NCBI GenBank assembly: GCA_963735035.1
Contig: CAVTJJ010000004.1
Coordinates: forward strand, 448,001 to 512,000
Source: an uncultured candidate division Zixibacteria bacterium
GTDB lineage: Bacteria > Zixibacteria > MSB-5A5 > GN15 > FEB-12
Reading direction: 5' to 3'
DNA length: 64,000 nucleotides
Shown: one piece after another, positions 18,787 to 30,045 of the stretch
How the letters are laid out: every line of letters starts with the position of its first letter
Position numbering within the stretch: position 1 is the stretch's first letter
Position numbers and translations under genes: made by a program
The notes under the pieces: generated by a model
Database searches by the model: none
What the model saw: only the letters and a program-made list of their open reading frames with translations
Told to the model about the DNA's origin: nothing

Positions 18787-21290
18787 ATGAAAGCAGTCGT
18801 CATGGCCGGCGGTTTCGGGACCCGACTCCGCCCGCTCACGATAAATACACCCAAACCGATGGTGCCGATCGGCAATGTCCCGATGATGGAACATGTGGTC
18901 GGGCTGCTGGCGCGCCACGGTCTCACCGATGTCACATCGCTGCTCTATTTTCATCCTGAGAGTATTCGCAACTATTTCGGTGACGGCTCCAGGGTCGGCG
19001 TCCAGATGGCTTACGAAAAGCCGAGCGATGATCTCGGTACCGCCGGGGCAGTTCGCTATGCGTTGGGCGAGCCCCGCGAACCGGTGCTGGTGATATCCGG
19101 CGACCTGGTGACCAATTTTGATCTGGCCGAAGCCATAAAATGGCACAAAGAAAAGAAGGCCGACGCCACTATCCTGCTCACTCGCGTAGAGAATCCGATC
19201 GCTTACGGCATTGTCATCACTGACGATGACGGCCGAATTGTCGAATTCCTCGAAAAGCCCACCTGGGGCGAGGCGTTCTCAGACACCATCAATACTGGCA
19301 TTTATATTCTCGAACCTCAGGCGGCGGCGCTGATCCCCAAGGACGAGAATTTTGATTTTTCCCAGAACCTGTTCCCGCTCATGCTCAAGAACGGCATGAA
19401 GCTTCACGGGAAGATTATGGACGGGTACTGGAAGGATGTGGGCAACACCGACGAATATTTCCGCGCCCACTTCGATCTCTTTGCCGGCGACCTGACTTTG
19501 CCGCTCAAGAACAGCAAGGAAGAAATTGACGGGGCCGTAGTCTACAAGGGTCGCAATGTTCGTCTCGGTCAGGATGTGAAATTCTCCGGCACGGTGCTTC
19601 TGGGTGATGACGTCAATGTGGGTGACGGCGCTCAACTCTACAACTGTGCCCTCGGCCAACGGGTAAGGGTGGGTTCGCGCAGTAGTATCAAAGACTCGGT
19701 AGTCTGGTCGGATACGGCCATAGGCAGCGAGTGCCGCTTCTCGCGCGCCCTGGTTTGTGCCGCAGTACAGGTCGGCGACAATGTTGAGCTGGCCGATCAC
19801 TCGATCGTTTCCGACGAATGCGTGGTCGGCGATTCCGCGACGGTTCGGGCTAACTGCAAGATCTGGCCGGGGAAGAAAGTCGACGAGGGCGCGATTGTGT
19901 CATCGTCGCTGGTCTGGGGCGACGCCTGGAACCGGGAGCTGTTCACCGATTCGAAAATAACCGGTCTGGCGCTGACCGAGATTACGCCGGAGATGGCGGT
20001 CAAGGTTGGGGCGGCGTTCGGCGCTACGCTCGGTCAGGGCAGCGCTGTCGTGACGAGCCGCGAAGTTTCCGACGTGGCCCAGTTGCTCCGTCGTTCCGTG
20101 ATGTCCGGCCTGATGGCGTCCGGGGTCAATGTTTATGACCTCGAGACTCTCCCCGTGCCGGTTGTGCGGTATGCACTGAAGAAAGGCGACTACGCTGCCG
20201 GCATGTATGTTCGCCACAACCCGGTCGACTATCGTTATCTCGATTTCATATTCTTCCACGGCTCGGCGCTCGACATGCCGACCTCTCAGCTCAAGAAAGT
20301 TGAGCGCAATTATTTCGGCGAAGACTTCAAGCGCGCTTCGATCAGCGAGATCGGTCACCTGGACTACCCGCAGCGGGTGTTGCGTGACTACCAGGCTGAT
20401 TTCATGGCCGAGGTTGATGTCGATATCATCCGCGAGGCCGGGTTCAAAATTGTGGTCGATTACGCCCACGGATCGTCGTCCGAGGTATTCCCCGATCTGT
20501 TCTCACGCCTGGGCATCTCCAGCACCGAGTTGAATTCCCACCCGAATCCGCTGAAATCGTCGGTGCCGCCCGAAGAGTCAGCCCGTGCTACCGTGCAGCT
20601 TGTCGGCCATCGTGCGCTCGCTCAACGCCGACGTGGGCTTCCGCGTCAATCCGGCCGCCGAGAAACTGACCGTGGTGGACGAAAACGGCCGCCCGTTGGA
20701 CGATCAGACGCTCTTGATGCTGGTAACTGAGCTTTATATTCGTACGCATCATCCCGAGAAGATCGCTGTTCCGGTGGCGGCGTCGATGGGGATCGAAGAG
20801 ATCGCCGACCGCTACGGAGTACAGGTCGTGCGGGTGACGAACGACCATCAGGCGATGATGAAAGTCCACATGTCGGGTGAGGTTGATTTTGTCGGCGGTA
20901 CGCGCGGCGGCTTTGTCATGTCGACGATTCCACAGCGGTGCCGACGCCATTTTCGCACTGGTGAAACTGCTTCAAATGATGGCGCAGACCCGGGGCCGCC
21001 TGGGACACCTTCGCACCAACTACGAACACCTGGTGCGGCAAACCGTCTCGGTACCCTGTCCCTGGTCGCGCAAGGGGACGGTCATGCGCCGACTGATCAC
21101 CGAGTCGGTGAACAAGCGACGGCAATTGATCGACGGCGTCCGCATTATCGAGGATGACGGCTGGGTGTTGATCGCGCCGGACCGGTTCAACGCGGCGTTT
21201 AATATCTTTGCCGAATCGAAGTCGCGTAAGGTGACCGAATCGCTTATCAGCAATTATAAGTCGGTGGTGGAGAACTGCCAGGAAGCGTAG
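18787..21290 (+). CDS. Mannose-1-phosphate guanylyltransferase / phosphomannomutase fusion (two +1 frameshifts, ~20600 and ~20924)
   Basis: MAGGFGTRLRPLT..PKP, EKP, hexapeptide repeats, then PGM/PMM-like domains ending CPWSRKGTVMR..DGVRI; three ORF fragments join with single-base corrections. Confidence 0.85.
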
Positions 21291-21348: not shown

Positions 21349-22426
21349 TTATTGTGTGCGAGGGGCTGGTGCAGGCGGTGCAAAGAACGATGTTCCCATG
21401 ACGCTGTCAAAACGCTGGCCGACGTCTCGATCCGTGAGATTTCGAGTGTTGCACCCACGCATCCGGATGGCGTTATCGGTGGTATTGAAGTAACATAGGC
21501 GAGTCCGCTCAGTATTGAAGCAGGTACCGAAGATCTGCAAGCCACTCGAGTCGTTTCGCGGCACCACCACGTCAAAGTCGTACTTGAGCGTATCGCCGGT
21601 AGCAAGATCGAACTGGAATGACGTGTCGCCGAGGCATCTGACATGATCGGTGAGTATTCTGATGCGAACATCCTTGCACATCGCATCCCCTCGAGCAAGG
21701 AGTCTCAGACGAACCACGCTGTCCGTGGCCACCATGTGAATCGGATTTATGTCCATGTCGAACATGTTCCTCGCCGTATCGATAACTCCCCCGTCCGCGG
21801 CATTGGGGATTGGCCCCGCCGAAATGTGGTTCCATACGGCCTCCTGATCTGCCCGGAACCTCGCATCTAGCTGCTTCATTGCCACAGCTCTCGGCCTCTG
21901 CTTCTGCCCGCGCTCGCGCCTGTGGGCTGAACCGAAAGTCGTACGGATAACATCTAACTGAGTCCTGGGTCTGCGACGAACGAGTAATGTGCCACCAGTG
22001 CGATCGCTTACGCCGGACCACCCTAACTAAGTTCAAACGCGCTTGTGTCAGACGCCGGAACGACGAGGTCGATGTAGTATGTGAGAGTATCTCCGACCTT
22101 ACCCGGAAAGGTCCAATTAGTGGCGAGGTGCATTGAAGCTTGTCCAGATTTGTCTAAGGTTACCGATGATGTCGCTGCATTCAACCTTGGGTACGACGGT
22201 GAGTTCAAGTCTCAATGGTCCCGGCCGAGTGGGCGAAGTGACAACCTGATCGCCGCTAGACTTCAAAGGGACCATTCTCAACCAACGGCGGAAATCCGCC
22301 GTCCGTTCCATATTGTGGAATGGTATCATCTGAGAATTCGACTACTGCCGAATCTGTAAGCACTTGCCCTACCAAGCCGCACACCGCCCATAGAGATGCT
22401 GACAAGAAGATCGCACGCCAGTTCAT
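21349..22426 (-). pseudogene. Fragmented exported-protein gene with an internally duplicated domain
   Basis: AGGAGG RBS + ATG 22426 (MNWRAIFLSASLWAVCGLVG signal peptide) stops after 56 aa; downstream fragments contain GDTLTYYIDLVVPASDTS and GDTLKYDFDVVVPRNDSS. Confidence 0.5.
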
Positions 22427-22714
22427 GATTCCCTCCTATGTCGTTCCCGTTTTCGATACCCCTGCATTACTCTGATCACTATGCGACCACACATCTGAAA
22501 CCCCGGTCTCCGGGCTATCATCCTTGTTCCTCAGATTCTGCCGCTAATTGGAGACAACCTTCCTGCCTTACTATACACCCCTTTCTGCAGCCTGCCAAGC
22601 GAATAACCGCGTCGTGGGCCTACAATAGTCTGACAAATCTCCCTATTGCCTCGGAGTATCTCGAATTGTATCTTCATCGATCCGGTAACTCGCCTCTTTT
22701 GAAGGATTGACGCA

Positions 22715-24114
22715 ATGGACTACAAAATTCGAACCAAAGTTTCCCGCATACTGATCGATGACGCCGTCCCGGCGGATACGGCTATTACTGTTCTTGGCTG
22801 GGTCAAGACGGTCAGGGTATCCAAGGCCGTGGCTTTTGTCGAGATCAACGACGGCTCCTGCATGGGGAATCTTCAGGCGGTTGTGGCCGATCCAGACAAA
22901 TACCCGGTGCTGGAAAAGTTGCTCACCGGGGCGTCGGTGCGGGTCAAAGGGAAATTGGTGGCGTCGCAGGGCCAGGGCCAGAAATACGAACTGGCGGTCG
23001 AGACCCTCGATCTGATCGGCGAGGCCGACCCGACCTATCCGCTTCAGAAGAAACGCCACACGTTTGAATATCTTCGCGAGATCGCCCATCTCCGGCCGCG
23101 CACCAATACGTTCGGGGCGGTCGGCCGGATGCAGCTCCAAGATCGCCTACGCCATTCACAAGTACTATCAGGAACGCGGGTTCTTCTATGTCCATACGCC
23201 GATGATTACGGCGTCGGACTGCGAAGGAGCCGGCGATATGTTCCGCGTGACCACGCTCGATCTGGACAACATCCCGCGCAAGGAAGGCAAGATCGATTGG
23301 GACGCTGATTTCTTCGCCTCGGAAACGTACCTGACCGTGTCGGGGCAGCTCGAGGGCGAGCTGATGGCGACTGCGCTGGGGGATATCTACACGTTCGGGC
23401 CGACTTTCCGCGCCGAGAACTCCAACACCAGTCGCCATGCCTCGGAGTTCTGGATGATCGAGCCGGAGATGGCCTGGGCGGAGATCGATGACAACATGGA
23501 TCTGGCCGAGGATTTCCTGAAATACCTGTTCCGGTTTGCGCTCGAAGAATGCGCCGACGACATGGCGTTCTTCAACCAGTGGGTGGACAAAGATGTCATT
23601 CGGACGCTCGAGAGCGTGGTCAATTCGCAGTTCGAGCGGATCACTTATACGCAGGCGATTGACATTCTCAACAAGTCGGGCGAGAAGTTTGAGTACCCGA
23701 CCGAATGGGGCTCAGATCTTCAGAGCGAACACGAACGCTTCCTGACCGAGAAGAAAATCGGGCGACCGGTAATAGTGTCCGACTATCCCGGAGAAGATCA
23801 AGTCGTTCTATATGAGAATGAACGAGGACGGCAAGACGGTCGCCGCGATGGATGTGCTGGTGCCGAAAGTGGGCGAGATCATCGGCGGGTCACAGCGCGA
23901 GGAACGCTACGACGTGCTCATGGACCGGATCAAGGCGAAGGGGATGACCGGCATGGAGAACTACTACTGGTATACTGATATTCGTCGCTGGGGTTCGGTG
24001 CCGCACGCCGGGTTCGGACTGGGGTTCGAACGCGCGATGATGTACATCACGGGCATTTCGAATATCCGCGATATCCTGACTTTCCCGCGAGTTCCGCGGT
24101 GGGCGAAGTTCTAG
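22715..24114 (+). CDS. asnS: Asparagine--tRNA ligase (two +1 frameshifts, ~23132 and ~23790)
   Basis: [75 protein letters not shown]. Confidence 0.93.
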
Positions 24115-24198
24115 GTTGGGTCTATGGTGGTTGGTGTACGTCCTCGTGCACCAACCTGTCTTGTAGGGCAGGTCCGCTTCGAACCTGCACTTCCACAC

Positions 24199-24308
24199 AA
24201 GAAAAGACGCCCGTTCTGGACGGGCGTCAAGGGTGCTCCGTAGAGCAAAACCTTCGAGACGGTTGTCTCTTACTGAGACTTGACTAACAACCGCCGCTTG
24301 AGTACATT
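24199..24308 (-). ncRNA. tracrRNA
   Basis: Minus strand reads AATGTACTCAAGCGGCGGTTGTTAGTCAAGTCTCAGT (anti-repeat, 24308-24272), then hairpins GAGAC-AACC-GTCTC and GCTC-TACG-GAGC, then terminator GACGCCCGT-CCAGA-ACGGGCGTC-TTTTCTT. Confidence 0.85.
24280..24308 (+). promoter_or_regulatory. Candidate cas9 promoter embedded in the anti-repeat
   Basis: TTGACT-N17-TACATT, 45 nt upstream of the cas9 ATG (RBS AAGGGGA). Confidence 0.55.
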
Positions 24309-24314
24309 ACTGGC

Positions 24315-24343
24315 TAAATACACTACGTTCGACCACCTGTCAA
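24315..24343 (-). promoter_or_regulatory. Candidate tracrRNA promoter
   Basis: TTGACA-N17-TATTTA on the minus strand; predicted +1 falls at the first base of the anti-repeat (24308). Confidence 0.55.
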
Positions 24344-24353
24344 GGGGAAATAC

Positions 24354-27300
24354 ATGAACCACGACAACGGTGAATCCAAACATCTGGGAATCGACCTTGG
24401 CCCAAATTCCATCGGGTGGGCGTTGGTTGAAGCGCCAGACAACAATACTCATCAGCTTGTCGTATCGGGTGTTCGCGTCTTTGAAGCGGGACTTGATAAA
24501 CTAGAATCCGACGGCAAAGGGGAATCCCGCAATGTCGCCCGACGTGCCGCGCGTCAGTCGAGGCGGGGAATTGAAAGAAGAGGCAGAAGGCTCACAAAAA
24601 TAGCCAACATTCTGCAGCGAGCGGGCCTTTTACCTGAAGGTGATCTGACCGACAGCGAGATCAGGCACAAGATATTGACGGAGCTTGATCTCAAGGTGGG
24701 CAATCCATACTCACTTCGTGCGCGTGCCCTTGATGAGAAATTGTCCAAACACGAACTCGGTCGCGCCTTGTTCCATTTGGCGCAAAGACGCGGCTTCCTC
24801 AGTAACCGCAAATCGGCGCCCAAGAAAGACGACGAGACTGGCAAAGTCAAAGCAGGTATAAGCCAGTTGAAGAAAGATATTGAAGCGTCTGGCTCGCGCA
24901 CACTCGGCGAGTATTTCAGTCGCATAGATCCGTTTCAACACCGGATACGGACGCACTACACGCATCGCTCGATGTATGAGCATGAGTTCAATCTCATCTG
25001 CGAGTCACAGAGTCGTTTTCATGCAGATGTATTGACAGATGATCTTAGAAAGATTCTTCACAAGGCGATCTTCTTTCAGCGGCCGCTCAAGAGCCAATCG
25101 CATCTGATTGGCAAATGCGAACTGGAACCGAAATACCGCCGCGCCCCTTGGGCGTTGCTCTGTGCCCAGCAATTCCGGTATCTGCAAACAATCAACAATC
25201 TGCGAGTGCTTGATGTCCCGAACCGCGAATTTCCGGAGTTGACCCCGGCCGAGCAATTCGCATTGGCAGAAAGGCTGGAATATCAGGAAGAGATGACTTT
25301 CGGTGCGGCGCGCAAGTTGTTGAACCTGCCCAAAACAAGCAAATTCAGCATTGAATTGGGCGGCGAGAAGAAGATCAAAGGCAACAGGACTGCGGCCTGC
25401 CTTGCCAAGATATTCGGCCTGGAGCGATGGCAAGCCATGACATCGGAAGAGCGCGACGCGGTGGTGGAAGACTGGCGAAGCATTGTCAAGGAAGAGACGC
25501 TCAAGAAACGCGGCATGAACAAATGGGGTCTTGACGAAGTCGCCGCAGAAGAACTGAGCCACCTGAATCTTGAAGAGGGCTATTGCTCAATGTCGCGTCA
25601 GGCTATCGCAAAACTACTGCCGCGACTTAGCTGTGGTGAAGCCCTGCAAACCGCTATCAAAACCGTGTACCCGGAACGCTTTGAACGCGTTGGTGCGGCT
25701 GTTGATACCCTGCCTCCAGTACGGGAATACTTCCCCTCGTTGCGGAACCCAATAGTGGAACGCGCTCTTACGGAATTGCGGCAAGTAGTGAACGCCATTG
25801 TTCGCGAGCATGGAAGACCCGCCGTGATTCGAGTTGAGCTGGCACGCGAACTGAAACAGCCGGCGAAGAGTCGCGAGGATACTATCAAGCGGATGCGCGC
25901 CAACGAAAAAGACCGGGCGAAGGCGGCGGAAAGAATACTTGAGGAAGCGAGAATCGCCAATCCGTCTCGGAGTGATATCCTCAGGGTTTTGTTGGCTGAG
26001 GAATGTGAGTGGACTTGCCCTTACACCGGCAGGCATTTCGGTATGACTGAAATCGTCGGAGATTCGCCGCAATTCGATATCGAGCATATCATCCCGCTCC
26101 ATAGGTGCCTTGACGACTCTTACATGAACAAGACCCTCTGCTATGCCGACGAAAACCGAAACCGCAAACGTGATCGAACTCCGTTTGAGGCCTACGCAGG
26201 CACCCCACAGTGGGATGAAGTTGTCGCACGGGTAGGAAAGTTCAAGGGCACGGCGGCAAGAGCCAAGCTGCAGCGCTTTCAGATGAAGCCTGAGGAGGTT
26301 GGGGCGTTGCTCGACAATTTTACTTCCCGGCAGTTAAACGATACCGCTTATGCCTCCCGAATGGCGAAGGAATATCTCGGACTTCTATTCGGCGGTCAGG
26401 ACAGCGACGGCATTGATGCCTCCAGTCATCGTCGCGTGCAGTGTACCAACGGCCAGGTCACAGCTTTTCTGCGCAATGTCTGGAGCCTCAACAGCATTCT
26501 TGGCGACGGACCCCGCAAGACCCGCGACGACCACCGCCATCACGCTGTTGACGCCGTCGTGGTCGCCCTGACCGATGCCGGCGCGGTCAAACGTCTGAGC
26601 GACGCGGCTTCTCGGGCCAAAATCGAGCGGCGGCGGCAGTTCGGCAAGGTGCCCCTACCGTGGGAGACATTCGATCAGGATGTTCGGCAGAGCATCGACA
26701 ACCTGGTCGTTTCGCACCGGCTCGATCACCGGGTAAGAGGTGCGTTTCACGAGCAGACTTTTTATGGTCGCCCAAGCCTCGGAGACGATGGCAAGCAGTA
26801 CGTACACACTAGGAAGCCGATTGAGAGAATCTCAGCCAAGGACATCAAAGACATTGCCGACAAGGCGGTGCGTGAATGTATCGAAAAGGCGCTCAGTGTC
26901 CTGGGGCAATCGAATCCTGCTGATGCTTTCAAAGACCCGGCCAGTCATCCGATCCTCAGCGGTGGAAACGACACCAGCAGGCCGATTCATCGGGTGCGAT
27001 TGAAGTCCTCTCTGAGGACTTTCGAGATCGGTTCCGGGCATCGTTTGAGGCATGTGGTACCAGACCGCAACCACCACATGGAGGTCGTGGAATTGCTCGA
27101 TGATAATGGGAACACCACCGGTTGGGAAGGGCATGTCGTTGATCTGTTTGAGGCGCGCCGTCGACTCGACCGGCGTGAACCGGTCATCAAGAAAGACCAC
27201 GGGTCGGGGAAATGCTTTCTATTTTCTCTGGCCAACGGCAACGTTATTGAATTGGACCAAGACGATGGTTCTCGTGGACTTTGCATCGTCCGAACCATCG

Positions 27301-27461
27301 AGACAAGTTCCAATATTAGGTGGGTTAGTATAAGAGATGCCCGGAAGTTGGCTGGTCGATCTAAAGCCGGTGAGACGGCTCGGCCGGATCCACTCCGAAA
27401 GAAGAACTGCTGCAAAGTAACAGTCGATCCGCTCGGCCGAGTCCGGCGAGCGCGTGATTAG
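24354..27461 (+). CDS. cas9: Compact type II-C Cas9 (1035 aa)
   Basis: RuvC-I LGIDLGPNSIGWA, Arg-rich bridge helix, HLAQRRGFLSNRK, RuvC-II RVELARE, HNH DIEHIIP..DDSYMNKTLC...N, RuvC-III HHAVDA. Confidence 0.96.
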   Translation: MNHDNGESKHLGIDLGPNSIGWALVEAPDNNTHQLVVSGVRVFEAGLDKLESDGKGESRNVARRAARQSRRGIERRGRRLTKIANILQRAGLLPEGDLTDSEIRHKILTELDLKVGNPYSLRARALDEKLSKHELGRALFHLAQRRGFLSNRKSAPKKDDETGKVKAGISQLKKDIEASGSRTLGEYFSRIDPFQHRIRTHYTHRSMYEHEFNLICESQSRFHADVLTDDLRKILHKAIFFQRPLKSQSHLIGKCELEPKYRRAPWALLCAQQFRYLQTINNLRVLDVPNREFPELTPAEQFALAERLEYQEEMTFGAARKLLNLPKTSKFSIELGGEKKIKGNRTAACLAKIFGLERWQAMTSEERDAVVEDWRSIVKEETLKKRGMNKWGLDEVAAEELSHLNLEEGYCSMSRQAIAKLLPRLSCGEALQTAIKTVYPERFERVGAAVDTLPPVREYFPSLRNPIVERALTELRQVVNAIVREHGRPAVIRVELARELKQPAKSREDTIKRMRANEKDRAKAAERILEEARIANPSRSDILRVLLAEECEWTCPYTGRHFGMTEIVGDSPQFDIEHIIPLHRCLDDSYMNKTLCYADENRNRKRDRTPFEAYAGTPQWDEVVARVGKFKGTAARAKLQRFQMKPEEVGALLDNFTSRQLNDTAYASRMAKEYLGLLFGGQDSDGIDASSHRRVQCTNGQVTAFLRNVWSLNSILGDGPRKTRDDHRHHAVDAVVVALTDAGAVKRLSDAASRAKIERRRQFGKVPLPWETFDQDVRQSIDNLVVSHRLDHRVRGAFHEQTFYGRPSLGDDGKQYVHTRKPIERISAKDIKDIADKAVRECIEKALSVLGQSNPADAFKDPASHPILSGGNDTSRPIHRVRLKSSLRTFEIGSGHRLRHVVPDRNHHMEVVELLDDNGNTTGWEGHVVDLFEARRRLDRREPVIKKDHGSGKCFLFSLANGNVIELDQDDGSRGLCIVRTIETSSNIRWVSIRDARKLAGRSKAGETARPDPLRKKNCCKVTVDPLGRVRRARD

Positions 27462-27476
27462 CCTGCCCAAACCATA

Positions 27477-27967
27477 AATGTACTCAAGCGGCGGTTCGTG
27501 TCAAGCCCCAGCTGTCTCTACCTTCTCACGCCGTGGGGCGTAAATGTACTCAAGCGGCGGTTAGCTGTCAAGTCCCAGCTGGACTACGTATTGATTGCCC
27601 TGTTGCTGGAATGTACTCAAGCGGCGGTTAGTGTCAAGTCCCAGCGCCGTGGGGCGTACAGGCGCAATCGTCAAAATGTACTCAAGCGGCGGTTCGCGTC
27701 AAGTCCCAGCTCAGTACGTATTCCATGATTAAGTCCTTTCAATGTACTCAAGCGGCGGTTCGCATCAAGTCCCAGCGCAGTCGGTGGGCTGATTCGGTAT
27801 CTACCAATGTACTCAAGCGGCGGTTCACGTCAAGTCCCAGCTCACCGTTCACCTGTCCGCTACCTAGTCGAATGTACTCAAGCGGCGGTTTGCGTCAAGT
27901 CCAGCCGACTTGAAGGGATCAGTTATGACCAACGCAATGTACTCAAGCGGCGGTTCGCGTCAAGTCC
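27477..27967 (-). CRISPR. CRISPR array: 8 repeats (35-37 nt, last truncated), 7 spacers (29-30 nt)
   Basis: Plus-strand consensus AATGTACTCAAGCGGCGGTTCGCGTCAAGTCCCAGC starting at 27477, 27543, 27610, 27675, 27741, 27806, 27871, 27936; orientation inferred from tracrRNA complementarity. Confidence 0.95.
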
Positions 27968-28068
27968 GCCTGACCTACGATTATCCCATTGAACCGCTTC
28001 GCTTCAGCCTCTTTTGGCCCCCTCAAACAATTCTAAATCCTACCCCTCGCTTTGCCGATATAAGAGAC

Positions 28069-28869
28069 ATGGGCTACAAGTCTGACTTACGCCAGGTCCT
28101 GATTGCTGTCTTCGGGCTCGCTCTGAGCGCGCTCGTGATCGGCTGCAATGGCGCGCCGACCAAGAGCAGCAACGAGGACAAATACCGCGTCGACGGTCTG
28201 GTTGTACAGAACCTGAACGTCGACACGGCGTTCATTGCCGCCCGATTCGCCCGCAACGACACCTCGATTACCAACGCCTCGATCAAACTCGCCGGTACGC
28301 CTCTGGGCTATTTCGCGTCGCTTCGAGGCATCCTCGCGGCCTATCAGTCCTGGCTGAAACCGGCAGATTCGCTGGCGGGATCAAGTGTCTATCTTCGTGT
28401 CGCCGACGCCAGTCGCTTCACTGATAGTCTGCCGCTGGGTATCGTAGGCACTTTCGGCCTGACCGACAACTTCCAGCCGCCCAACCATCATCTCCAGGGT
28501 ATGACTAATTATGTCTCTCTGGAATGGACCGCGGCCGCCAACGCGGATAGCTACGTGCTAGCCGCCGTCAAGACGTCACTGGTCGGCACCGGAGCAGGCT
28601 ACAGCGCCCAGGTGACAGCGACCGGCGTGGCCGGAACTATTCCCGCGGATGCCTTCATGAATCCAAGCACCAACCTTCCCGACACCGGGCTTTACAATAT
28701 CTATGTATATGCCTTCAACGACGCCCCCGACTCGGCTTTAGCGACCAAACTCCTGCCGGTGCCGTGGCCAATTCAGGTGACCGAGAATATCGCTCGAACG
28801 TCTCTGAAGGGTCGGTTCGGGTCTATCACCGTGGCGCTCAAGGACACGGTTCGGGTGCTCGCTCAGTAG
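28069..28869 (+). CDS. Hypothetical lipoprotein
   Basis: MGYKSDLRQVLIAVFGLALSALVIGC lipobox. Confidence 0.65.
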   Translation: MGYKSDLRQVLIAVFGLALSALVIGCNGAPTKSSNEDKYRVDGLVVQNLNVDTAFIAARFARNDTSITNASIKLAGTPLGYFASLRGILAAYQSWLKPADSLAGSSVYLRVADASRFTDSLPLGIVGTFGLTDNFQPPNHHLQGMTNYVSLEWTAAANADSYVLAAVKTSLVGTGAGYSAQVTATGVAGTIPADAFMNPSTNLPDTGLYNIYVYAFNDAPDSALATKLLPVPWPIQVTENIARTSLKGRFGSITVALKDTVRVLAQ

Positions 28870-29109
28870 CTTCCAGGCTTCAGGGCTTATTGGAAGAAGT
28901 CTCCTCAAGTCACTTTCATGCATTTGCTATATCAGCCGGCAGATGTGGGCATCTGCCGGGCACCTGGTGAGAATCGCTGTCGGGCAGATGTGGGCCCGCC
29001 GCGGCGGGCCGGGCACTAGTCAGGCATCTGCAAGTCATCTGCCGGGCGCTAGTTCTTCCCAATCCGCATTTTAGTTGCCCGTACGGATCGTCACCGATAG
29101 GTTCGTTTC

Positions 29110-30045
29110 ATGGCGGACATGAACGAACTTATCAGCCGATTACGGCAGCTCGATACCGAAAAGGTCAATCCGAACACGGTCGATATCGATCGACTGTCAC
29201 CCGTCGAAATCGCGCGTAAGATAAATGCCGAGGACAAGACGGTTGCAACTGTAGTCGAAGCTGCTCTTGAGCCGTTAGCGAGTGCGGCGCAAGTCTTTGC
29301 CGAAACCCTCAAGAACGGCAAGCGAGTCTTCTATGTCGGCGCGGGGACTTCCGGGCGGTTGGGGGTGCTCGACGCCGCCGAATGTCCGCCGACTTTCGGT
29401 ACCGATCCCAAACAGATAATAGGCTTGATCTCGGGCGGGTACGAGACCTTGATCCTCTCCAAAGAAGGGGTTGAAGACGATGTTCGAGCGGCTGTTGTGG
29501 ACCTTCAGTCTCACCATCTGGCTACGGGCGATTTCGTGATCGGGCTGGCTGCCTCCACTCGAACCCCGTACACGCTTTCGGCTTTGCGATACGCCAAGAC
29601 CTGTGGCTGCCGGACCGCGTTCATCGTATGCAATCTCGCGGGTGGAATAGAAATCAGACCGGACATACTTATAGAATTGCCGGTGGGACCGGAAGCCATT
29701 ACCGGTTCGACTCGTATGAAATCGGGCACGGCCGAGAAGATGGCGCTGAACATCATTTCTACCACCGCCATGGTGCTCTTGGGGAAGACCTACGGAAATC
29801 TGATGGTTGATCTTCAGGCGCGCTCCGAAAAGCTGGCGGCAAGATCACGCAAGATTCTTATCGAGCTGCTGCAAGTCGATCTGCCCAAGGCCGAGGAACT
29901 GCTGCAGCTTTCCGGTGGATCGGTCAAACTGGCGATAGTTATGCACTGGCAGAAATGCGACCGGGCCGAAGCGGAGAAGCGCCTGGCGCAAGCGGGGGGG
30001 TTCATTTCGCGATTGACCAAAGTGCCGCCGGCACAATTGCCCTGA
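29110..30045 (+). CDS. murQ: N-acetylmuramic acid 6-phosphate etherase
   Basis: GAGTSGRLGVLDAAECPPTFG, GPEAITGSTRMKSGTA.K, GNLMVD. Confidence 0.93.
   Translation: MADMNELISRLRQLDTEKVNPNTVDIDRLSPVEIARKINAEDKTVATVVEAALEPLASAAQVFAETLKNGKRVFYVGAGTSGRLGVLDAAECPPTFGTDPKQIIGLISGGYETLILSKEGVEDDVRAAVVDLQSHHLATGDFVIGLAASTRTPYTLSALRYAKTCGCRTAFIVCNLAGGIEIRPDILIELPVGPEAITGSTRMKSGTAEKMALNIISTTAMVLLGKTYGNLMVDLQARSEKLAARSRKILIELLQVDLPKAEELLQLSGGSVKLAIVMHWQKCDRAEAEKRLAQAGGFISRLTKVPPAQLP

Follow-up and report, generated by a model that had tools for sequence, protein, structure and literature searches.

How does a CRISPR array come to carry several spacers against the same few base pairs, and what can be read from such an array once its adaptation genes are gone? 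Both questions are raised by a cas9 locus in the window, by which we mean the whole 64,000-nt stretch of Zixibacteria DNA analysed here. A preliminary description of this DNA proposed that four of the seven spacers tile the ribosome-binding site, start codon and signal peptide of a single secreted-protein gene, in two alleles and on both strands, and offered two explanations: strongly focused, primed-like acquisition against one element, or a Cas9 dedicated to one gene. We examined the locus, its overlaps, the possible source of its spacers and the arrays of its relatives.

The cas9 locus and its array

The locus consists of the following parts, in window coordinates.

24198-24308, minus strand: candidate tracrRNA, with the anti-repeat from 24308 to ~24272, then stem-loops and an intrinsic terminator
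24315-24343, minus strand: putative tracrRNA promoter (TTGACA, 17 nt, TATTTA), recognized by eye
24354-27461, plus strand: cas9, 1,035 aa, uninterrupted, ending 15 nt before the first repeat
27462-27476, no strand assigned: the 15-nt junction of cas9 and array, where relatives have cas1, cas2 and a leader hairpin
27477-27969, minus strand: CRISPR array of eight repeats (R1-R8) and seven spacers (S1-S7), with crRNAs running towards cas9

The cas9 product carries the Pfam domains RuvC_III, HNH_4 and Cas9_a and scores 703 bits against the TIGR01865 equivalog model, for which the cut-off is 100. Its best relatives of solved structure are chains titled Cas9 (E 1e-77), the top entries of which we take, from their entry codes, to be Neisseria meningitidis Cas9. 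Alignment with solved Cas9 places the RuvC-I Asp, the HNH His/Asn and the RuvC-III His/Asp motifs, presumably the catalytic residues of the enzyme. The window Cas9 is 77% identical, without gaps, to that of G002, the nearest relative with the same repeat and a member of the same genus.

Upstream of cas9, the minus strand reproduces the start of the repeat exactly over 20 nt (24308-24289), and with its flanks this copy extends to the whole repeat. A stem at 24228-24206 followed by a T-run was detected as a terminator-like site, and the candidate folds with z = -4.0, a stability that none of 200 shuffles equalled. Cofolding pairs the anti-repeat with every repeat of the array through 13 bp, an internal loop and 20 bp. 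The tracrRNA is therefore best described as a predicted minus-strand RNA of ~110 nt, and with the tracrRNA on that strand the crRNAs would have to be minus-strand as well. Rfam matched no family in 22000-30000, an interval that includes the candidate. The putative promoter stops 6 nt short of the anti-repeat; the promoter scan omitted this site because its second hexamer ends in A. Opposite the anti-repeat, 46 nt before cas9 begins, the plus strand at 24280-24308 holds a promoter-like TTGACT, 17 nt, TACATT, so that the cas9 promoter may sit inside the anti-repeat.

The repeats are 36 nt long, with the exceptions of R2 (37 nt), R7 (35 nt) and the truncated R8, and all seven spacers measure 29-30 nt. 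Read on the minus strand, the repeat is GCTGGGAC followed by TTGAC[A/G], 16-17 nt and TACATT. The promoter scan reported a promoter-like site on the minus strand in seven of the eight repeats and 12 such sites across the region, against a shuffle mean of 2.2; among related arrays, the 18 consensus sequences of the repeat all retain the hexamers TTGAC[A/G] and TACATT. Each repeat may carry its own putative promoter, and each crRNA would then begin inside its spacer. In the type II-C systems of N. meningitidis and C. jejuni, crRNAs start at repeat-internal promoters, according to excerpts of PMC5965381 and PMC12477760, which for N. meningitidis summarise Zhang et al. 2013.

All eight repeats differ from one another, except that R4 equals R8 over the part that R8 retains. 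Nearly all of the differences fall in the internal loop of the repeat:anti-repeat duplex, at plus-strand repeat positions 21-24. Two substitutions lie in the stem, in R1 and R5, and in cofolding both retain a G:U pair. By eye, the two CpGs of the 20-bp stem are invariant in all eight repeats, whereas the CGCG of the loop has undergone a different transition in each of R1, R5, R6 and R7. Because the stem CpGs are unchanged while the loop CGCG has varied, we take the repeats to be under purifying selection for pairing with the tracrRNA. The array looks old, yet still constrained.

Models of Cas1 and Cas2 found no match anywhere in the window's own genome (G000; 3.6 Mb, 96.9% complete). In the relatives G002, G069 and G277, the gene order is cas9-cas1-cas2-array with a Cas1 of type II (263 bits for the cas1 of G002), and in G002 and G277 a hairpin-forming leader, recognized by eye, stands between cas2 and the first repeat. 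These hairpins lie at ~1244-1300 of contig L016 (G002) and 8142-8180 of contig L053 (G277). The leader region of the window is a remnant of only ~15 nt. By this comparison, the window lineage has evidently deleted cas1, cas2 and the leader, so that the array can no longer grow and would be, if functional at all, a fixed interference-only memory.

As to class, the window locus is without the cas9-cas1-cas2 operon, free of csn2 and cas4, that characterizes II-C, and the expected Cas9 and tracrRNA features are present. Because cas1 and cas2 are absent, we describe it as type II-C-like, a reduced derivative of a type II-C locus and not a complete one. Like N. meningitidis II-C, it combines a tracrRNA and 36-nt repeats bearing promoter-like sites with a Cas9 whose closest match among solved structures we take to be NmeCas9; its array is likewise read towards the cas genes, and the operon of its relatives is cas9-cas1-cas2 only. 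Unlike the N. meningitidis locus, it has no cas1, cas2 or leader, and its tracrRNA is placed ahead of cas9 and in the reverse orientation.

Across the phylum, Cas9 is present in 27 of 285 genomes and type II Cas1 above cut-off in 21. The six Cas9 genomes without type II Cas1 are G000, G034, G181, G030, G026 and G077, the last four of which are too fragmented for the absence of cas1 to be judged. In G034 (L054 445-4000), a mini-array begins 14 nt past the cas9 stop, with four spacers between five non-identical repeats and with no cas1 or cas2, and a tracrRNA-like anti-repeat with a terminator lies upstream of cas9. Since the Cas9s of G034 and the window are only 50% identical, the two lineages lost cas1 and cas2 independently. 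Repeats that stand beside cas1-cas2 are uniform. Namely, the 28 full copies of G002, among those listed, are all identical, as are the 12 full repeats listed for G277, whose array ends, on the side distal to cas9, in an additional degenerate copy.

The repeat farthest from cas9 is thus degenerate in both the window (R8) and G277, and it is a variant in G069. Together with the position of the leader on the cas2 side in relatives and the polarity of N. meningitidis, this suggests that the trailer end is the end away from cas9, with S1 the youngest spacer and S7 the oldest. R1-R3 have a T at repeat position 23 in common, which suggests that they descend from one another. For N. meningitidis, excerpts of PMC12477760 describe spacer entry at the leader end and a leader-adjacent repeat that yields no crRNA.

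Two genes upstream of the locus are split in the assembly. At 22715-24114 (plus strand), a class II aminoacyl-tRNA-synthetase gene of the Asp/Lys/Asn type, the only copy in the genome by tblastn, occupies three overlapping frames (22715-23308, 23064-23978 and 23812-24114) and is either a pseudogene or a product of assembly indel errors. At 18787-21157 (plus strand), an ORF of 647 aa (nucleotidyl-transferase/hexapeptide/phosphomutase) reaches no further than phosphomutase domain II; domain III matches weakly (E 0.008) in another frame at 20585-21157, and the split, near 20600, looks like a further frameshift. Because nearby genes are frameshifted in the assembly, the 37-nt R2, the 35-nt R7 and the 29-nt spacers may be errors. 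G034, an independent assembly, has the same repeat heterogeneity as the window.

The gene after the array (28069-28869, plus strand) encodes a 266-aa protein with a lipoprotein-like N-terminus, as judged by eye; it is unrelated to the spacers and has no Pfam or NCBIfam match. In the genome as a whole, CTAG is strongly depleted (observed/expected 0.35) and CGCG mildly so (0.85).

Overlapping spacers in the window and in related arrays

The seven spacers are listed below from the cas9 side outwards.

27513-27542, minus strand: S1, whose 13 3'-most nt, in the plus-strand reading, are the 13 first nt of S3
27580-27609, minus strand: S2, which at its start agrees with the reverse complement of S4 (S4rc) at 13 of 15 nt
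27646-27674, minus strand: S3, 29 nt, offset by 17 nt from S1 on the same strand
27711-27740, minus strand: S4, from the strand opposite to that of the S2 stretch
27777-27805, minus strand: S5, within the block 27777-27935 (S5-S7)
27842-27870, minus strand: S6, within the same block
27906-27935, minus strand: S7, within the same block

The range singled out in the preliminary description, 27513-27740, runs exactly from the first base of S1 to the last base of S4, and both overlaps reported there hold. The end of S1 equals the start of S3 at 13 of 13 nt, and the start of S2 matches the end of S4rc at 13 of 15. Among 2,000 composition-preserving shuffles of the seven spacers, none yielded an overlap as good as that of S1 and S3, and one matched that of S2 and S4rc. 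The S2/S4rc score was likewise reached by only 1 of 16,416 between-array pairs drawn from 188 spacers in 18 arrays of the repeat family. S5-S7, with repeats 6 and 7 between them, are unrelated to each other and to S1-S4. If S1 is the youngest spacer, the four youngest acquisitions would have alternated between two stretches, in the order S4, S3, S2, S1.

The two spacers of the second pair overlap at the PAM-proximal end of both guides. Counted from the 3' end, their two mismatches fall at 4 and 11 nt in the S4 guide and at 5 and 12 nt in the S2 guide. In place of the two target alleles proposed earlier, these mismatches could equally be mutations that arose inside the frozen array.

We used as a control set 17 other arrays of the same repeat family, comprising 181 spacers and 1,303 within-array pairs. 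Sixteen of these arrays contain no overlapping pair, and their only high-scoring pair is one exact duplicate, in G069. The array of G277 (L053 7415-7973) resembles that of the window: 4 of the 66 within-array pairs among its 12 spacers overlap, in two clusters. Spacers 2 and 4 of G277 come from opposite strands and match at 18 of 20 nt, with two mismatches and their PAM-proximal ends facing. In the second cluster, spacers 7 and 10 represent the two strands of a single 30-bp stretch, agreeing at 24 of 30 nt, and spacer 9, offset by 19 nt from spacer 10, overlaps both of them at 10 of 11 nt each. Because G277, with cas1-cas2 present and uniform repeats, shows such overlaps too, they are not peculiar to a gene-specific Cas9. 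The comparison points to overlapping, strand-switching and slightly mismatched spacers as a recurrent product of acquisition in this Cas9 lineage.

Two further observations concern these arrays. In G277, all four readable PAM-side flanks have a C at position 4. Within a single array, identical spacers are present in duplicate in G069 (L018 2917-3209, to either side of an N-run) and in G002 (L016 55-187, one of them at the contig end); these duplicates may be true duplications or assembly repeats.

The source of the spacers

Searches of the host genome, proposed at the outset as a check on tiling and self-targeting, gave no match beyond chance. An exact search of the own genome located the S1/S3 13-mer only at its two array sites. 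Against the same 3.6 Mb, blastn-short of the seven spacers returned at best 20 of 22 nt (E 0.18); its 16/17-nt matches had E >= 0.7, and by an estimate from the sizes involved ~2 such matches are expected by chance in this genome. None of 40 relatives contained S1, with up to three mismatches allowed. When the array was compared by BLAST with the remaining 107 family genomes and the remaining 284 phylum genomes, the results were only other arrays and short chance matches, with no target in either set.

Viral, plasmid and metagenome collections, also suggested as places to look, held no target either. The best matches had an E of 0.5 among phage records and of 6 among plasmid records. None of eight exact scans of viral contigs (with all seven spacers and a 20-mer of S1) gave a match, nor did either of two exact scans of metagenome contigs (with S1 and with a 22-mer of S3). 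Exact scans of genome contigs gave no match to the 22-mer of S3 and one match to a 22-mer of S2, in a Rhodocyclaceae MAG (L020 2001-2022). The spacers of G002 and G277, compared by BLAST with the family or phylum genomes for their PAM and target type, yielded no targets.

Several of these matches were inspected and set aside. Three in the family genomes (19/19 in S2; 18/19 and 17/17 in S1) fall in a pre-tRNA intergenic stretch and in two unrelated genes. A 25/27 match in the phylum spans the boundary of S4 and its repeat and lies in an unrelated AT-rich gene. The Rhodocyclaceae match comprises 22 contiguous nt and 4 of the other 8, with no fitting start codon and no neighbouring spacer; the ORF around it, 65 aa long and encoding a two-helix membrane protein, has a gcvH-like gene on one side and a gcvP-like gene on the other, and we judged the match a chance match to helix-coding DNA.

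The spacers themselves carry some information on their source. The union of S1 and S3 is open in all three forward frames and closed in all three reverse frames, and that of S4rc and S2 is open in two of the three forward frames and closed in all three reverse ones, a frame pattern with a shuffle probability of ~0.034 for each union. Because the forward frames are open and the reverse frames closed, both stretches look like coding DNA in the plus sense of the window. By eye, an AGGA stands 7 nt upstream of the ATG in S4rc. In the reading frame first proposed, one of the two differences between S2 and S4 is conservative (Glu/Asp) and the other synonymous (Leu), and that frame is therefore mildly favoured.

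Whether the two stretches adjoin is a separate matter. That all four spacers come from one ~90-bp stretch, as was proposed by abutting S2 and S1, strikes us as possible, though we stop short of calling it probable. A rival to this single target is that S1/S3 and S2/S4 derive from different genes or elements, in which case there would be neither a single 90-bp target nor a signal peptide, and we consider this a serious possibility, if again not a probable one. No sequence joins S1/S3 to S2/S4. The open frame across the proposed junction is compatible with unrelated pairs, since all forward frames of S1 and S3 are open and any S2-S1 junction would read open. The proposed signal peptide has an acidic residue in its N-terminus and no basic one, as judged by eye, and the two clusters of G277 are also without a link. 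On its own, a spacer specifies no more than 9-10 residues, and the joined peptide does not itself occur in the window. On the other side, the two unions agree in their coding-like polarity with respect to the array, and S4, S3, S2 and S1 alternate within it; one hot spot is also a simpler account than two.

The flanks bear on the same point. For guides on the minus strand, S1 supplies the PAM-side sequence of S3, and S4rc supplies that of S2. These flanks, GTGAGAAGGT for S3 and TGATTAAGTC for S2, have only AAG at positions 6-8 in common. The flank of S4, read from the S2 allele as TTGCCCTGTT, is without this AAG. If S2 abutted S1, the flank of S1 would be CCAGCAACAG, with only AA at positions 6-7 in common; that it shares this AA with the two known flanks speaks weakly against unrelated pairs. 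The PAM comparison rests on two secure flanks and decides neither way.

Focused acquisition as the favoured reading, and its alternatives

In aggregate, we consider it reasonably likely that this is a II-C-like locus with a frozen array, in which the overlaps came from focused re-sampling of the same DNA before the loss of cas1 and cas2. Of the two explanations first offered, focused acquisition is the best reading, given overlaps that lie beyond chance and recur in G277. While cas1-cas2 were still present, a first spacer against a foreign gene would have directed Cas9 cleavage, and the cleavage ends, or surviving escapers, would have fed more acquisition from the same spot. Cells holding extra guides would have been selected once the invader escaped. 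The PAM-proximal mismatches between S2 and S4 would represent escape mutations, followed by re-acquisition from the escaper, and the later deletion of cas1, cas2 and the leader would have frozen the array. Priming, in the sense of focusing stimulated by Cas9 cuts, seems the most likely cause of the overlaps. Locus anatomy, overlaps, the absence of cas1 and cas2 through loss, and recurrence in G277 are established; we infer the order of acquisition, priming as the cause, the escape reading and a single element as the origin of both pairs.

Laboratory work on type II-A provides the closest precedent. Excerpts of PMC7105378 describe Cas9 cleavage as providing DNA ends for acquisition, with second spacers mostly <1 kb from the first target, and escapers that carry seed or PAM mutations. 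For S. mutans, excerpts of PMC8265633 report that 10-15% of second or later spacers map no more than 500 bp away, on either of the two strands. As in II-A primed acquisition, so far as these excerpts describe it (Nussenzweig 2019, via PMC7105378 and PMC8265633), the window spacers lie near a presumed targeted site on either strand, with PAM-proximal mismatches as found in escapers. Unlike that work, which according to the same excerpts used laboratory II-A systems with Csn2, the present case is a natural II-C-like array; its overlaps of 13-15 nt are tighter than the <500 bp to 1 kb seen there. In the window locus, moreover, the adaptation genes are now gone, and the process has to be deduced from its products.

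In the portions of the literature retrieved, we found no statement on priming or focused acquisition for type II-C; priming is shown there for II-A. Nicholson (2019) reportedly treated priming in types I and II by bioinformatics, and that work may already cover II-C. Our literature searches found nothing on Zixibacteria together with CRISPR and Cas9. Focused acquisition in itself is already known, and nothing here alters the existing picture of Cas9 function.

The overlaps could also mark a hot spot that needs no priming, such as a recurrent free DNA end (the injected end or packaging site of a phage, a plasmid nick or a stalled fork), sampled by naive acquisition in separate infections by slightly different variants. 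We think this unlikely. Overlaps far above chance, on both strands and with mismatches, do speak for repeated encounters with related elements, and excerpts of PMC7105378 describe a preference of naive type II-A acquisition for the injected DNA end. However, the interleaving of the pairs with each other in G000, or with unrelated spacers in G277, fits priming equally.

A different emphasis would be that selection has kept the adaptation-less Cas9 as a fixed defence against a single, persistent mobile element, with four of its seven guides on one gene; we regard this as improbable. Were it true, the guides would converge on the ribosome-binding site, the start codon and the first ~25 codons, and three of them, being complementary to the mRNA, could act on DNA and perhaps on RNA. 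Modules pared down to cas9, a tracrRNA and a mini-array, with at least two origins in this phylum (G000 and G034), would in that case make up a recurring, fixed-memory variety of II-C immunity.

A further reading, that Cas9 is kept to repress or cut one host or resident-element gene, resembles the case of Francisella. Francisella novicida Cas9 with scaRNA reportedly represses an endogenous lipoprotein gene, in work (Sampson 2013) that PMC5965381 mentions. Shared with that system is the idea of a Cas9 acting at the 5' end of one secreted or lipoprotein-like gene. Unlike it, the window has no target that we could find in its own genome, and its guides are ordinary array spacers. A regulatory role would accord with a locus that has no cas1 or cas2 and yet retains an intact cas9, tracrRNA and repeat:anti-repeat pairing, with guides S1-S3 that would be complementary to the putative mRNA around its start, and with the second, independent cas1/2-less locus in G034. 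It has against it that no spacer matches the own genome beyond chance or any of the other 284 genomes of the phylum, and that G277, with uniform repeats and with cas1-cas2 and hence the means of adaptation, shows the overlap pattern too. The earlier suggestion of a Cas9 dedicated to silencing or cutting one gene is accordingly very unlikely to be correct.

Least likely is an assembly artefact, in which the arrays of several strains were merged or consensus errors created the similarities: neighbouring genes are indeed split by frameshifts, but errors do not make spacers identical over 13 nt, the repeats can all be told apart, which aids correct assembly, cas9 is uninterrupted over 3.1 kb and the independent assembly of G277 has the same pattern.

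Whatever the cause of the overlaps, the locus indicates that an adaptation-less Cas9 module can persist, with cas9 intact and repeat variation restricted to the internal loop of the duplex. If focused re-sampling before the loss of cas1 and cas2 is the correct reading, the array would preserve, from a phylum that has hardly been studied, a small natural trace of an arms race in which a hit was followed by a change in the seed and by re-sampling from the other strand. The focusing of acquisition around Cas9 targets, seen in laboratory II-A systems, would then also operate in natural II-C-like systems, as reflected in 2 of the 18 arrays of this repeat family.
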